From an uncultured Candidatus Binatia bacterium (GTDB lineage: Bacteria > Desulfobacterota > Binatia > Bin18), in the NCBI GenBank assembly GCA_965243855.1, contig CBDEWE010000002.1:31659-95658 (forward strand): a stretch of DNA of 64,000 bases, in the 5' to 3' direction. Below the pieces are notes generated by a model that saw nothing but the letters and a program-made list of their open reading frames with translations, was not told where the DNA came from and did not search any database. Made by a program: the position numbers and the translations under genes. Positions 27,030-58,860 of this stretch are shown here, piece by piece. Numbering within the stretch: the first letter of the stretch is position 1; every line of letters starts with the position of its first letter.

Positions 27030-27625
27030 AGAAGTTTTTTCCCGGTTCTCACCCTCAGATCGGACCGGGAAAAAACGGTCTGCCGGCCCGAAGGGCCTTC
27101 CGCTTCCGCAAGCCGACTGCCCGTACGACCCGTGACAGGTTCCCTGGCGCGCGGTTGCCACAGGAGGCGTGGTCTTGCGGGGACGGGGGGGTGTCGTCAG
27201 CCGGGCCGACCCGACTATCGCAGCCGTGCCAGGTGTCCTGGCGCGGCTGCACGGGTCAGGCCCATCGGCGCGGTGTGCCCGGCCCCTGGGCCGGCGCACA
27301 CGACGTCTCAGACCGCCAGCGCCCGGGGCGGACTGGCTGGCCAAAGCCTGCGGAGGTCCAGACATGGCCGACCGGGGCGCTCGGCGACCGCCTTCCGGCT
27401 TTGCCGGGACGGCCTAGCGCTCAGCGGACGGTCTGGCTAAGCCCTGCTCCTACCGGCGAGCTGGGACGGCTGTCGCCGGTCCTGGTCGCCGGTCCGCCTT
27501 CTGCGCCGTCGGATGTGGCCGTAAGTCTCTGTTTTCTGGAGAGGGTCCGGTGGCCGATACAGACCGCTACGGCGATGTATGGTGGTCGGTGTTCGCCGGC
27601 GAAGGCCAAAGACGGAGGTTTTGAC
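27030..27625. repeat. Leading-region intergenic repeat, copy A (17-nt-loop hairpin plus shared blocks)
   Basis: 13-bp stem 27034-27046/27064-27076 with loop TCTCACCC...; blocks shared with copies B, C and D. Confidence 0.85.
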
Positions 27626-27767
27626 CTGATTCCTGGGCCTGGGACCAGGAACGCCGGCACTGGCCTGCAGGGGGGAGGGAAAGCCGGCGAGGCGAGGGGC
27701 CGGCCGCCTGTACGGCAGAAAACCGAAAGATTCGGATGGGGGGGCGCGCGTTATTTTTTTCTTCCTT

Positions 27768-27786
27768 CCTCTTAATTTATGTAGGG
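27768..27786 (+). promoter_or_regulatory. Cargo-gene upstream motif, copy 4 (CCTCTTAATTTATGTAGGG)
   Basis: Faces 28149..28904. Confidence 0.55.
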
Positions 27787-28148
27787 ACAGGGACGGCGGC
27801 ATGATGTAGGCAAGGGTCATATAATTCCCCCCACGGAAGGGCAGACCACGACGGTAGCGTGGCAGCAGGGGCAGCAGAATTTTGGCATCACGAACGTGGA
27901 GTAGAGAGCCAGGGAGGCGGGATGACGGAGGAACAGGGCGGCACTGGTCACCTCTGGCGGTATGGGTCCTAGGGCGTTTCCCGCTAGAGGGTGTAGGGGG
28001 GCCGTTTTTTCATCGGCCTGACAGCAGGGACCGTGACAGGAGGACCCATGGTATCCACCGGCCTCACGAACGCTGAACAATCACACAACACGCGCCGGGC
28101 GCTGCTGGACACGGCCCGGGGTGGTGAGGATGGAAACAGGAGGTGGTT

Positions 28149-28904
28149 ATGATCCGCCCCGTTTTGCTCGCCCTTGCCCTGTTCGCTCTCCAAGCAGCTC
28201 AGCCCCCGCCCGCTCCCGCCCAGACCTTTGCCGAGTGTCAAGCGTACTTGTGCCTGCCCGCCGGCTTCTCCACCCACGGCGGCTCACCCACCACCGCTTG
28301 TGATGCTGCCCATGAGGCGGTCCTTCGCCGCTTGGCGCGGGGCATGGACCCGCTGCCGAGCTGGTCAAGCTGCGCGGCCCGGTTTGGGTGGGATGCCGCG
28401 AACCTGGGGTGGACGTTCCCGACGCAGGTGAGCTGCCCCAACGGCGGCGCGCGGGCGGGGAACACCTGTCGCTACACGGACCTGCAAGGCTGCACCTATA
28501 GCGGCGCGGCCCGCATCCACGGCCACGTGGGGGTGGTGATCGACGGCGCGTCACACGGCTACCAGCTCCCCTACACGGTGCAGGAAGCCGACACGCTTGC
28601 CCTCGATCCAGGGCAGGACCCGCTGGTCTGCCGCCAACCACCACCACCGCCGCCCAACAACAATGGCCGTTGCTGCGCACCACAAGCGGTCAATTATTAT
28701 TGGACCGGCCCGGCGACCGCCCCCAGCAAGACGTTGGTGTGCACCCCCACCCCCGTCAACGCTGGCCGCCCCGGCGACCCACCGCCCCAGCGGGGCGGCG
28801 AACCCTACAACCCTCCGAACTGCTGCCCCCCGTGGGCGCTGCATCATCAGTGGGCGTATGACCGGAATAGTCTGGCTTGCGTCCTGGGCGGCATCCTCCC
28901 CTAA
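28149..28904 (+). CDS. Secreted Cys-rich protein, possibly TrbM/KikA-like at the N-terminus
   Basis: Signal peptide, CQAYLCLPAGF...C...RRL..G..PLPSWSSC; many paired Cys. Confidence 0.6.
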   Translation: MIRPVLLALALFALQAAQPPPAPAQTFAECQAYLCLPAGFSTHGGSPTTACDAAHEAVLRRLARGMDPLPSWSSCAARFGWDAANLGWTFPTQVSCPNGGARAGNTCRYTDLQGCTYSGAARIHGHVGVVIDGASHGYQLPYTVQEADTLALDPGQDPLVCRQPPPPPPNNNGRCCAPQAVNYYWTGPATAPSKTLVCTPTPVNAGRPGDPPPQRGGEPYNPPNCCPPWALHHQWAYDRNSLACVLGGILP

Positions 28905-29076
28905 CTCCCCGATCTGGACGCCGGCGAATTCCGCCGGCGTTATGGTCCACCCGCCCAAGGGATGGCAGCGCGAACCGGGGGGCGGACGATACTTTGGACG
29001 CGGGAAATTTTCGAGGTCTGAAAACGGCAATATGGGCCGCGTTCCGACCCATCGGCATTTTTGGCCTATTCCGAGA

Positions 29077-29250
29077 AAAAACGGGGCGCTCATTTGCCGT
29101 ATATGGGCCGATCTCACCGGGCCAAAGGGGAAGGATCGTGGGATTTCGGCCCCGTCCCGCCGGATATTATTCGGTGGTGGGGTGTCCGGAACTGCTGCGC
29201 GGGGTCTGGCTCAGGTCGGGTCGGGGGCGGCCTTGCTGTCTCTGACCTTA
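29077..29250. repeat. Block also present at about 58690-58860
   Basis: gccgtataYgggccgatctcaccgggcc...gatttcgg...atattatt...gtgtccggaac in both copies. Confidence 0.8.
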
Positions 29251-29623
29251 AATCATTAGGCAAAAAGCGCGCCGCGACGGGGGGCGAGGAGAAGACTGGT
29301 CACGTCTTCCGCTGTTTTCGCGGCCACCGGCGCTGGATACGCCGACGCGCATTAGCGGACCGAGGCGGTTGCGGGGGGGCGGGAGAGGGGAGGGGCATAT
29401 CGCCTCAGCCTTGGTCCGCCGAGGCGGCAGCCCAAACAACTCCCGGGCGCGGTCTCGTTCCGGAGGAGGAGTCCTTTATACACCACTTCGACGCTCGGGA
29501 TGTCCACTTCATTGTATCTCCACTCAATCGGTGAAGCTGGTGTTGTCAAAAAGTAGATGAACTGGTCGAACTGGGCATGTCCGCGGAAGGCCGACCGGGG
29601 CGCCTGCTAACTAATGACACGCC

Positions 29624-56732: not shown

Positions 56733-56834
56733 AGCCCTCTACTTTTATCAGCCAGACGTACTATTTTATCAAAGGGCGAGCGGGAGATATGCAGCGTCCT
56801 AGACCCATAGATCGTAGGAATCGAGCGGCAGGCG

Positions 56835-57152
56835 TCACGCCGCCGTTTGCAACCCCTTCTTCGCCACCAGCGTCAACAGCTTCAGCGAGGCCCCCCGCGG
56901 GCGCTTCGTGCCCCGTTCCCATTGGCTCACCAGCCCAGGGGTGACGTTTAGATAGCGTGCAAAGACCGCCTGACTCGCCTGTTCCCGGAGCCGGATCGTG
57001 CGGATCTCCGCCGGGCTGAGGTCCTTCACCGGTGTCAAACACAATGCGTCGAATGTCTTCAGGGTCCGTTTCGGCATGACACCGGCCTCGGTCAGGCCGA
57101 GCGCGGTTTCATGCACGGACGCCAGCGCTTCACTCTTGTATTGCCTCGCCAT
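56835..57152 (-). CDS. XRE/HigA-like antitoxin
   Basis: IRLREQASQAVFARYLNV...VSQWERG.KRP.GASLKLL. Confidence 0.92.
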   Translation of the reverse strand: MARQYKSEALASVHETALGLTEAGVMPKRTLKTFDALCLTPVKDLSPAEIRTIRLREQASQAVFARYLNVTPGLVSQWERGTKRPRGASLKLLTLVAKKGLQTAA

Positions 57153-57520
57153 CGTAGGGCACCTCCGTAATCGTTCTGTTGGCCATCGCCGCTGCGACCT
57201 CAGCCTCTTGCAACCCTAATAGTACGTCTGCGAGGGCCTGGAAAGCTTTGCGTTCGTCTGGGCGGATATTGACCTGGCGACTCTTCGCGAACCCATGCAC
57301 AAAGTAAGGCCCGCTCGCCTCGACGGGACAGCACGATACTCCGATATCCGCGCGCCCTCCCCTGCCCCGGTCGGGCGATCCGTTGCTTGATCACACCGCC
57401 CCCGAGATCGGCATCCACCACGCCCTGCTCCGCGCGGCGGACGGCATCGCACAGTGCCGCATCCGCTAGCCCTTCGCGCCGCGCGAACCGCACGAACGGT
57501 CTCGTCTTGAACACGCGCAT
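57130..57520 (-). pseudogene. RelE/HigB-like toxin with a +1 frameshift near 57307
   Basis: MRVFKTRPF...DADLGGGVIKQRIAR; removing one T from gcc-t-tac-ttt restores AYFVHGFAK...TITEV. Confidence 0.8.
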
Positions 57521-57687
57521 CCAGCCTTACAGCCCCTTACTATCATACTTTGTCATATAGCACTAAGTGATAGAGTTGACAATCTATCTTCACATGTGGA
57601 CTTCCAGCATCACTCCCGGAAGTGGCGGAGAGGTAAGCCGTATCGGTGCTCCAGCCTCCCCCCCGTAAGATGGGCAGGAGCAACAGT

Positions 57688-57858
57688 CTATTTGAACAGG
57701 CTAAGCGATTCCGGCTCACGCCGTTTTCGTTCTTTTTTCGGCTTCCGCTTCTCCCTCAACCAGCGGTACTTCTCGTCCGCGTCCATAGTGGCCGCGCTCA
57801 AGTCCACCTGACGAAACGTATCCCGCTTCGCTTCCATGCTCTCCTGCTTGAGTCTCAT
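57688..57858 (-). CDS. Small basic protein (56 aa)
   Basis: RBS GGAGG/AAGGA; lies just behind hairpin copy D. Confidence 0.55.
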   Translation of the reverse strand: MRLKQESMEAKRDTFRQVDLSAATMDADEKYRWLREKRKPKKERKRREPESLSLFK

Positions 57859-57914
57859 GTCCTTTCCTCCCTCGCCCTGTGCCACGGCCTCGCTGCCTTC
57901 TGCCCACAACAACA

Positions 57915-58860
57915 CTTTTTTCTTTTCAGGTCTCACCCGGCCCTGGTCCTGAAAAGAGAAAGGTCAGACAGTCTCCCTCTGAATGGAGCGTCCCCAGCGT
58001 TTTCATGACAAATCTCGACGGAGGAGAGTTTGGCGGGAAATAAGCTCCCAGCGGAATGAAGGCTATGCTTCTCCTTTTCCTGGGGGGGCTCGGTGTGGCC
58101 CTGTACACGGAGCGGGGACGCTGCCGCGCGTGGTCGGACCTGCGGACCTGGGCAGGCCGGACGCGGGCGGCAGGGAATGGGGGGCGGGAAGGGCTTGGTT
58201 CCTGGGGCTTCCTTCTTGGGGTAGCGCTCGGTGTGGCCCTGTACACGGAGCGGGGGGCTGCGGCTTTGCCGGGACGGCCTAGCGCTCAGTGGATGGTCTG
58301 GCTAAGCCCGGCTCCTGCCGACGAACTGGGACGGCCGAGGCCGGTTCTGGTCGGCGGCCCGTCTTCCGCATCGGACGCCGATTTTGCGACGTCGGACGCG
58401 GCCGTAAGTCCCTGTTTTCTAGTAAGGGTCTGGGTATAGGAAGAGCCGATTACGGGACGCTACGGTGCTGTATGGCGGTCGGTGGTCGCTGGCAAAGGCC
58501 AAAAACGCTCGTTTGCTCGGACCGGGCGTAGCTCCCTCACCCCACCGGCCTTCACATGGGAGCATTGGGCAGAGCGAGGCTACACGGTCTGCCCTCCTCC
58601 ACAATCCAACCTCCTCGTTTGATGTATATATGATTTGTATACATAGTCTGGAGGTGCAATCCAGAAAACCCCCGTTTTGTGAAGCAACCAAAAAAACGCC
58701 GCACTCAGTTGCCGTATACGGGCCGATCTCACCGGGCCGAAGGGTAATGGACCTGTGATTTCGGTCCGTCACCCCCGAATATTATTAGGCGCTGGTGTGT
58801 CCGGAACGCCACCGCGTGGGCTGGGCGGCCGATTCAAATCACATAGTGCGCCACACGGAA
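57915..58860. repeat. Leading-region intergenic repeat, copy D (longest)
   Basis: 10-bp stem 57921-57930/57948-57957 with 17-nt TCTCACCC loop; 30-bp direct repeats at 58088-58117 and 58226-58255; blocks shared with A, B and 29077-29250. Confidence 0.85.

Follow-up and report, generated by a model that had tools for sequence, protein, structure and literature searches.

We analysed a stretch of 64,000 nt, called the window throughout, from an uncultured Candidatus Binatia bacterium (contig CBDEWE010000002.1 of assembly GCA_965243855.1, positions 31,659 to 95,658 of the forward strand). The window encodes VirB4 and a coupling protein, and it contains four copies, A to D, of a non-coding cassette, each of which fronts one of four leading-region operons of a MOBP/type IV secretion system (T4SS) conjugative plasmid of Candidatus Binatia. 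The cassette is conserved and consists of several covarying hairpins. It is strictly co-oriented with the operons and lies directly before them, and its upstream two-thirds folds preferentially on the strand transferred during conjugation (the T-strand). The gene-side hairpins of the four copies, here called P4, and the genes behind them are as follows.

27033..27077, minus strand: P4 of copy A, T6-CCCGGT stem, 17-nt loop with the gene-strand end GGGTGAGA; 63.7 bits with a P4 covariance model
26609-27004, minus strand: HNH endonuclease, behind copy A
25842-26921, minus strand: PAPS-reductase-like protein, behind copy A
42745..42789, minus strand: P4 of copy B; 58.7 bits with the covariance model
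41834-42712, minus strand: ArdC, behind copy B
44516..44560, minus strand: P4 of copy C; 52.2 bits with the covariance model
44021-44404, minus strand: SSB, behind copy C
57917..57961, minus strand: P4 of copy D, divergent, TTTTCAGG stem; 51.2 bits
57688-57858, minus strand: 56-aa open reading frame (ORF), behind copy D

An earlier note on this DNA had pointed to four hairpins, and all four are present where it placed them. Run with filters off on both strands of the window, the P4 covariance model recovers exactly these four on the minus strand at 51-64 bits; the remaining matches are reverse-strand shadows of the four, and the next reaches only 16.7 bits (E=0.16), which excludes chance. The arms pair perfectly over 13 bp in copies A (27034-27046/27064-27076) and B (42746-42758/42776-42788). 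In copy C they form a 16-nt perfect repeat (44516-44531/44545-44560) that reaches 2 nt into the 17-nt loop, and in copy D a core at 57921-57957 is extended by arms at 57914-57930/57948-57964 with 88% complementarity. Read on the plus strand, each P4 has a T-run on one side and an A-run on the other; between them, the two arms of a short, variable, G+C-rich stem enclose a 17-nt loop. All four loops in the window are 17 nt long and begin, on the plus strand, with TCTCACCC, an octamer that occurs six times in the window against 2.5 expected and occupies the same hairpin-loop place in four of the six.

P4 is the gene-side last module of a larger repeated non-coding cassette of 170-450 nt, and alignment of the flanks shows that conservation extends well past its stem. 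On the gene strand the order is an upstream block of ~130 nt with an internal direct repeat CCGTCCC(A/G)GC...GCCGG, one to three modules that we call P2, a GGCT(T/C) box, a short variable hairpin (P3) between this box and P4, P4 itself, a U-rich run, a strong ribosome-binding site (RBS) of the GGAGG type and the start codon. The P2 modules, ~70 nt apart, are imperfect hairpins of the form ...GCGCCAGG-loop-CCTGTCAC..., built on GCGCC...TGTCAC. The box lies 17-18 nt downstream of TGTCAC and accompanies the last (proximal) P2 module only, distal modules being without it. The cassettes have a G+C content of ~70-76%, compared with ~61% for the window. Coordinates of the modules in the four copies are given below.

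27005..27032, minus strand: copy A, U-rich run and RBS GGGGAGGG, ahead of the HNH ATG at 27004
27085..27097, minus strand: copy A, P3 (GGCCC-TTC-GGGCC)
27110..27160, plus strand: copy A, proximal P2, gene strand GCGCCAGG-loop-CCTGTCAC with GTCGGCTT 17 nt on; plus-strand GTGACA at 27132-27137
27220..27250, plus strand: copy A, distal P2, TGGCAC variant
27365..27500, plus strand: copy A, upstream block with two T-strand hairpins
42716-42744, minus strand: copy B, U-run and RBS GAGGAGGG; ardC ATG at 42712
42822..42873, plus strand: copy B, proximal P2 and GGCTT box, GGAAGCCGAC at 42822-42831, GTGACA at 42846-42851
42912..42945, plus strand: copy B, distal P2
42950..43085, plus strand: copy B, upstream block
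44489-44497, minus strand: copy C, RBS-like AAGGAGG without an ORF; ssb ATG at 44404
44597..44648, plus strand: copy C, sole P2 and GGCTT box, GTGACA at 44621-44626
57858, minus strand: copy D, ATG of the 56-aa ORF
58000..58040, plus strand: copy D, P2-like hairpin with a TTGTCAT core, read from the sequence, with two non-Watson-Crick positions as in the other copies
58225..58385, plus strand: copy D, upstream block

The T-rich run that the earlier note saw ahead of the RBS is present. The downstream genes are those that it named (HNH/PAPS, ardC, ssb and the 56-aa gene), with one correction for copy C, where P4 is followed by an RBS-like AAGGAGG without an ORF and ssb begins 111 nt past the hairpin. 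Elsewhere the distance from P4 to the start codon of the first gene is 21-36 nt, or 62 nt in copy D. Copy C is limited to one P2 module and lacks the upstream block, which is found in copies A, B and D and also in the related loci L005, L013 (two copies) and L073. Copy D is the most divergent copy in the window and retains a P2-like hairpin. As a side observation, relatives of copy C (L013, L029, L015 and L086) likewise keep the AAGGAGG and lack a usable start codon after it; in copy C (44404-44515) and these relatives a conserved spacer of ~85-110 nt follows, and then ssb's own RBS.

The cassette recurs in related elements. Metagenome assemblies contain many proteins closely related to the ArdC of the window, and every contig fetched for them carries the same cassette immediately 5' of ardC, usually with extra cassettes before ssb, HNH or small ORFs of no assigned function. 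A pattern scan of one genome per species found it in metagenome-assembled genomes (MAGs) of Candidatus Binatia, with up to seven hairpin copies on one 80-kb contig, as well as in two further MAGs, one of low-G+C 'Deltaproteobacteria' and one of Desulfuromonadales; hosts that keep the cassette range from 35% to 65% G+C. One Binatia contig is 92-93% identical to the window over ardC-ssb. The same kind of scan in Joint Genome Institute (JGI) metagenomes added five true loci, most of its matches being due to chance. Among the 72,556 plasmids of PLSDB, there was no match to copies A and B (blastn, word size 11), nor did a 20-kb near search give one. Applied to 26 related loci, the P4 model gave 42 matches, 42/42 on the ardC strand. 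Each cassette copy stands before an operon, with ArdC, SSB, HNH or small ORFs of no assigned function, the position about which the earlier note had asked.

These relatives also qualify the claim of an invariant 17-nt loop, which is true of the window and its close relatives. Elsewhere the loop ends are GGGCGAGA, TTACGAGA, GGGTGAGC, GGGTGAAA or GGGGCGAAGA, loop length ranges from 14 to 19 nt, and part of the loop invariance in the collected sets is due to the search patterns used. What is conserved on the gene strand is a GGGTGAG core, with CC(G/C)A before it at the 5' side of the loop. The U-run after P4 is found in the Binatia copies and is absent in four loci of distant lineages (L010, L014, L061 and L075). 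Separately, the minus strand of L086 has a T6-CCCGG/CCGGG-A6 stem with an unrelated 19-nt loop (from ~8513 in reverse-complement coordinates), on the strand opposite to its cassettes.

The stem covariation that the earlier note described is confirmed in the window, and it persists in wider sets of copies from relatives. Across 30 aligned cassettes, 6 of the 11 stem pairs of P4 vary on both sides and 99% of the cells are paired. The covariation score is 0.218, compared with 0.102 +/- 0.009 in shuffles, none of 500 reaching the observed value. The step from compensatory change to selection on structure was correct. Pairing falls to 54-62% when the partner is slid by one column. Among 34 distinct copies, the six inner pairs each occur as two to four Watson-Crick types (~97% paired), and the T-run/A-run at the stem base is conserved as sequence, beyond pairing alone.

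A similar pattern holds for P2, of which we counted 54 distinct modules, with GCGCC and TGTCAC, both invariant, as anchors. The innermost variable pair, next to the core, is GC in 47 modules, CG in three and AT in three, and the outer pairs show two to four Watson-Crick types. When outer arms are swapped between modules, the duplex energy rises from the observed -7.41 to -6.03 +/- 0.27, and 0/500 permutations are as low as the observed value. The P2 loop is 3 to 15 nt long, which fits a hairpin folded from one strand and is hard to square with a dimeric protein on duplex DNA.

Several lines of evidence indicate which strand folds. P2 contains two invariant non-Watson-Crick positions. On the gene strand they read C.A (48/54) and C.T (49/54), which correspond to G.T and G.A on the T-strand, and rare variants at these positions restore T-A (three copies) or C-G (five copies). 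The stability of P2 favours the T-strand in 30/30 cassettes with DNA parameters and in 29/30 with RNA parameters. Over the 200 nt upstream of P4, the T-strand gives the better fold in 32/32 copies, including those of distant low-G+C lineages, with an energy gain of ~9 kcal/mol against a background standard deviation of 4.9. Relative to dinucleotide shuffles, the mean z is -2.55 for the T-strand and -0.98 for the gene strand, the former being lower in 29/31 copies. On the T-strand the upstream block folds into two hairpins, one with 17 pairs and the other with 15; they include G.T pairs that never vary, positions that alternate between GC and GT, and two compensatory pairs. Plus-strand DNA folds of copies B, C and D have z values of -3.8, -3.9, -5.9 and -2.7. 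Stable folding of the T-strand beyond chance, as expected of a single-stranded DNA (ssDNA) promoter, is what we find.

The same regions stand out when the whole window is folded as ssDNA in sliding segments of 250 nt. The most stable GC-corrected plus-strand segments, at 27.0-27.5, 42.75-43.5 and 44.45-44.9 kb, correspond to the DNA immediately upstream of copies A, B and C, and the region upstream of copy D (58.0-58.35 kb) is among the most plus-biased folds of the window. A strong plus-strand bias of 12-18 kcal/mol also occurs at 52351-53150, within and just past a tyrosine recombinase gene (52091-53044, plus strand). For the gene-proximal hairpins the picture is different: the strand preference of P3 is unclear (gene strand favoured in 19/30), and P4 is nearly strand-symmetric, with two G.T pairs on the gene strand versus ~8 on the T-strand. 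Since neither shows a clear preference, P4 may act as RNA.

The polarity of transfer can be read from an origin of transfer (oriT)-like site, which adjoins the NikA/MobC-like and relaxase genes.

17434-18600, minus strand: MobA/VirD2-type relaxase
19451-19966, minus strand: NikA/MobC-like protein
20040..20070, plus strand: oriT-like site, GCAACGT-tgtgttac-ACGTTGC-g-TATCCTG/C (slash, nick)

Eight bases past the inverted repeat comes YATCCTG/Y, the IncP/MOBP nick consensus. Because this motif sits on the plus strand, the plus strand is the T-strand; hence all four gene groups have it as their template, and the leading region extends from 20070 towards higher coordinates. The nicked strand exits 5' first, and the cassettes enter ~7, 23, 24.5 and 38 kb past the nick. 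They are non-coding, lie in the leading region and stand upstream of genes templated by the T-strand, the setting expected of ssDNA promoters. The same oriT-like motif is found on the related contigs L002 and L086, on the strand opposite ardC, and on L018, where it is on the plus strand with the cassettes on the minus strand, as in the window.

Other features near these sites are recorded here in their own right. The P2 base of copies B and C (42839-42873 and 44614-44648; GCAGnGCAACG...CACGTTGC) closely resembles the oriT repeat (20036-20062), a likeness that may reflect local recombination or chance; the idea that P2 is a copy of the oriT hairpin was rejected, as the two differ in L018 and L086. 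A palindrome, GGTGGCCGGGCCACC(C), occurs three times in the oriT-proximal non-coding DNA (~20018-20033, 20396-20411 and 20442-20455) and is a candidate binding site of a relaxosome accessory protein. At 31880-31913 on the plus strand, a second inverted repeat, GTGTAG/CTACAC, is followed by TATCCTGC and flanked by genes for LuxR/PAS-type regulators (30231-31370, minus strand; 32037-33182, plus strand). This may be another nick-like site or may be due to chance.

Further genes of the element include, downstream of copy D on the minus strand, a RelE-like toxin fragment (57130-57300), a helix-turn-helix (HTH) protein (56835-57152) and a 340-aa protein (55710-56732) whose TIR domain is of the Thoeris ThsB type, a defence-like gene in the leading region. 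The operon at 46370-48700 (minus strand), which encodes an HTH_3 regulator, an IrrE/M78 peptidase and a 485-aa protein similar to RNase T/exonuclease I, is also templated by the T-strand, yet has no cassette upstream. A 782-aa pentapeptide-repeat protein is encoded right behind the coupling protein gene (15058-17406, plus strand), and pentapeptide-repeat genes recur on the related contigs L086 and L089. No primase was recognised among the large unannotated proteins of the element, for which Pfam and PDB searches gave no match; its two 778-aa proteins are unrelated to each other.

From the analysis as a whole, we tentatively view the cassette as a putative single-strand-active signal that resembles the Frpo and ssi elements of other conjugative plasmids in logic without being a member of their family, a reading to which we would give slightly less than an even chance. 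The T-strand enters the recipient single-stranded, which would allow the cassette hairpins to form, and the folded hairpins may then let host enzymes start RNA on ssDNA, as Frpo or ssi does. The resulting RNA could act as messenger for ArdC, SSB, HNH and further early genes, could prime the complementary strand, or could do both, and the signal would vanish once the DNA turns double-stranded. In the last module, the constant spacing of TGTCAC-N17/18-GGCTT hints at a possible place for the polymerase. With a start just past GGCTT, P3 and P4 would become leader hairpins, and the U-rich run and strong RBS would provide for efficient translation. The likeliest role of P4 is one in the early transcript, where it would be a 5'-leader hairpin that leaves the U-rich/RBS stretch open or would offer its exposed loop as a start site; this is the weakest part of the account.

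A number of observations weigh against this single-strand interpretation. No canonical sigma-70 -35/-10 elements were found in copies A and B, on either strand or in the hairpin arms, by scan or manual inspection, whereas the stems of Frpo rebuild TTGACA and TATAAT ~17 bp apart, a trait by which Frpo is defined. Copies A and B resemble no PLSDB plasmid, and Frpo sequences were not aligned directly. A long-range helix enclosing the GGCTT box has a mean z of -0.3 over 29 copies, no better than controls. Base composition explains about half of the energy difference between the strands (-4.2 kcal/mol), what lies beyond it being due to sequence order, as the dinucleotide shuffles show. Outside its two core positions, P2 has balanced numbers of G.T and A.C (38 vs 35). 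P3 and P4 lack a clear strand preference, and the strand-specific signal sits upstream of P4. In addition, the copies share descent, and counts such as 32/32 therefore overstate independence. The earlier note had offered a Frpo/ssi-like signal as one of two readings of the hairpin; the T-strand template and T-strand folding fit this reading, and it is weakened by the location of the signal upstream of P4, by the missing -35/-10 elements and by the lack of similarity to PLSDB plasmids.

Several candidate features were tried and dropped. That the GGCTT box pairs with the distal upstream block seemed convincing in copies B and C and was unsupported across 29 copies. RNA folds suggested anti-Shine-Dalgarno pairing of an upstream CGCCTCC with the RBS; CGCCTCC is the linker between tandem modules and has other partners in larger T-strand folds. 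UNCG/GNRA tetraloops in P3, considered as a sign of RNA, were rejected when the loops were recounted as 3 nt. Variants of the sigma-54 motif TGGCAC...TTGC occur, but their spacing is 3-4 nt too short for a sigma-54 promoter, and the layout differs from that of an integron attC site.

How well do other explanations account for the cassette? An ordinary double-stranded DNA (dsDNA) promoter-operator could stand before each operon, to be shut off by a plasmid repressor after a brief burst following transfer, with P3 and P4 as leader hairpins. Its appeal lies in the fixed 17-18 nt between TGTCAC and GGCT(T/C), like the halves of a promoter for some sigma factor, in the distal modules that are without the second box, and in the small HTH and ribbon-helix-helix (RHH) genes on the element; a repressor-based establishment regulon upstream of ardC also has precedent (PMC6294495). 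We nevertheless consider it unlikely. Sigma-70-like hexamers were not found, and no conserved candidate repressor was identified beside the cassettes. Loops that range from 3 to 15 nt and arms that both show compensatory changes suit a folded strand rather than a dimeric operator, and the T-strand bias of wobbles and z-scores is not something that a dsDNA site predicts.

Also improbable, in our judgement, is a cis-acting leader RNA comprising the whole cassette or P3-P4, in which P4 and the U-run would act as attenuator or insulator, or the GGGUGAG loop would bind a regulator, a ribosome or an antisense partner. The position of P4, 21-36 nt before the first start codon (62 nt in copy D, 111 nt in copy C), the U-run of the Binatia copies and the lack of T-strand bias in P3 and P4 are consistent with it, as is a weak ROSE-like match over copy B (24.9 bits, threshold 45), and the EGeRS1 repeats of pLS20, right before RBSs, stop read-through in one orientation only (PMC8708921). 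However, as RNA the hairpins upstream would contain C.A and C.U mismatches, and the mean z of -0.98 on that strand is about shuffle level. At Rfam gathering thresholds the whole window gave no match, and relaxed thresholds, applied to 2.4 kb and seven related loci, returned only sub-threshold chance matches to ROSE, microRNAs (miRNA) and small RNAs (sRNA). The terminator- or attenuator-type leader, the second reading of the earlier note, lacks support in the form in which it was put: a scan of both strands of copies A and B found no canonical intrinsic terminator at the hairpins, the loop is 14-19 nt (vs 3-8), the stem base is A-T, and the U-run is missing in the four distant loci. A leader-RNA role for P4 alone is possible.

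We regard as rather doubtful a further possibility, that the cassette represents a new class of single-strand-only start signal without sigma-70 mimicry, in which T-strand hairpins with their G.T and G.A positions would recruit polymerase or primase and the 17-nt P4 loop would be the start. The 5' end of the RNA would then be the conserved GGGUGAGA, followed by a short, A/U-rich unstructured leader into the RBS. Such a loop-start signal, if true, would work in phyla far from Enterobacteria and shut itself off at second-strand synthesis.

Two other explanations are very improbable. A structured antisense RNA from the plus strand, pairing with all four leaders through its large loops as kissing sites (cf. 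FinP/traJ and CopA/CopT), would match the better structure on that strand and the same loop sequence in every copy, which would allow one logic for four operons, but promoter- or terminator-like signals were not found on the plus strand around the cassettes, a 200-400-nt region of tandem modules is unlike known antisense regulators, and the plasmid context already accounts for plus-strand folding as DNA. Just as improbable is a selfish or recombinational repeat (MITE/REP-like or attC-like) between gene groups, used to shuffle leading-region modules: copies are more alike within one plasmid than between plasmids, the genes behind one and the same cassette differ from plasmid to plasmid, P2 is imperfect with fixed unpaired positions like attC or IS200/IS605 ends, and tyrosine recombinase and resolvase genes are nearby, yet the orientation is always that of the downstream genes, the cassette always ends in an RBS and start codon, it is conserved in hosts of 35% to 65% G+C, and there are no target-site duplications, terminal inverted repeats or integron-type layout, in which attC sites follow ORFs and vary in sequence.

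Returning to the putative single-strand-active signal, the closest comparison is with the leading regions of IncF and IncI plasmids, in which several ssDNA promoters have been mapped, one per leading operon (PMC9849209, PMC12672017). Frpo1/2 of F, ssi of ColIb-P9 and classes 1-3 of pESBL are leading-region repeats before ssb, psiB and ardA operons (PMC9849209, PMC11541004, PMC12672017), and the RNA made from Frpo and from the more recent classes of ssDNA promoter in F and pESBL is messenger, primer or both (PMC9849209, PMC12672017). The likeness consists in non-coding leading-region repeats, one per early operon and several per plasmid, with the T-strand as template and stem-loops on the T-strand, all of which are true here. 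The F and ColIb arrangement, in which the T-strand is the template, is shared by the cassette and is the opposite of that in pLS20 (PMC8708921). Beyond the missing promoter mimicry, the structures differ in that Frpo is one long stem-loop, whereas the cassette has tandem short imperfect hairpins and a gene-proximal T-run/A-run hairpin. The hosts differ as well, Enterobacteria for Frpo and uncultured Binatia and related lineages for the cassette.

In layout, the cassette recalls EGeRS1 of the pLS20 family of Bacillus plasmids, a region of 420-750 bp that is rich in inverted repeats and has a G+C content above that of the plasmid (PMC8708921). EGeRS1 lies directly before the RBS of five establishment operons, including that of ardC, without a recognisable sigma-A promoter, and its mechanism is unexplained (PMC8708921). 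The cassette is likewise conserved, inverted-repeat-rich and G+C-rich, placed directly before the RBSs of ardC and other genes and devoid of sigma-70 boxes. The two share no sequence similarity, as judged from the absence of a PLSDB match, and pLS20 transfers the non-template strand, whereas the plasmid with the cassette transfers the template strand. It is because the transferred strand is the non-template strand that the authors of the pLS20 study exclude an ssDNA promoter (PMC8708921). 

Other systems are more distant. Hairpin signals that prime only on ssDNA, such as the G4-type ssi, ssiA/ssiB of RSF1010 and ssoA of rolling-circle plasmids, are read by primase or RNA polymerase. The cassette resembles them as a set of single-strand hairpins with conserved loop and flank nucleotides and differs in having no sequence similarity to them and no recognised primase gene on its element. 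Since every copy is strictly coupled to an RBS, the cassette points to gene expression and not to priming alone. Repressor-controlled establishment regulons are represented by ArdK of R388 and the CUP repeats of pKM101 (IncW/IncN). In p576, EGeRS2/Reg576 is a repressor-controlled repeated region that precedes ardC and other establishment operons as one regulon (PMC6294495). Repressor regulons have strong dsDNA promoters with short direct or dual heptamer operators, in contrast to the covarying hairpins with variable loops and T-strand bias of the cassette, where no such promoter was seen.

A plasmid's survival on entering a new host depends on early, transient expression of its anti-restriction and ssDNA-protecting genes. 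To our knowledge, the mechanisms worked out for such expression are limited to the Frpo-class ssDNA promoters of IncF/IncI plasmids and the repressor system of one Bacillus family. Together, P2 and P4 make up a compact motif defined by covariation that can be searched for in metagenomes, where it would mark leading regions, oriT polarity and candidate anti-defence genes. If its single-strand activity is true, ssDNA-dependent gene switching needs no mimic of a canonical promoter. The cassette at most works like Frpo; it is closest in logic to the Frpo-class ssDNA promoters and in layout to EGeRS1. Plasmids of the G+C-rich Binatia and some low-G+C relatives share the layout in which each leading operon has its own structured repeat on a template T-strand, with a different sequence logic.

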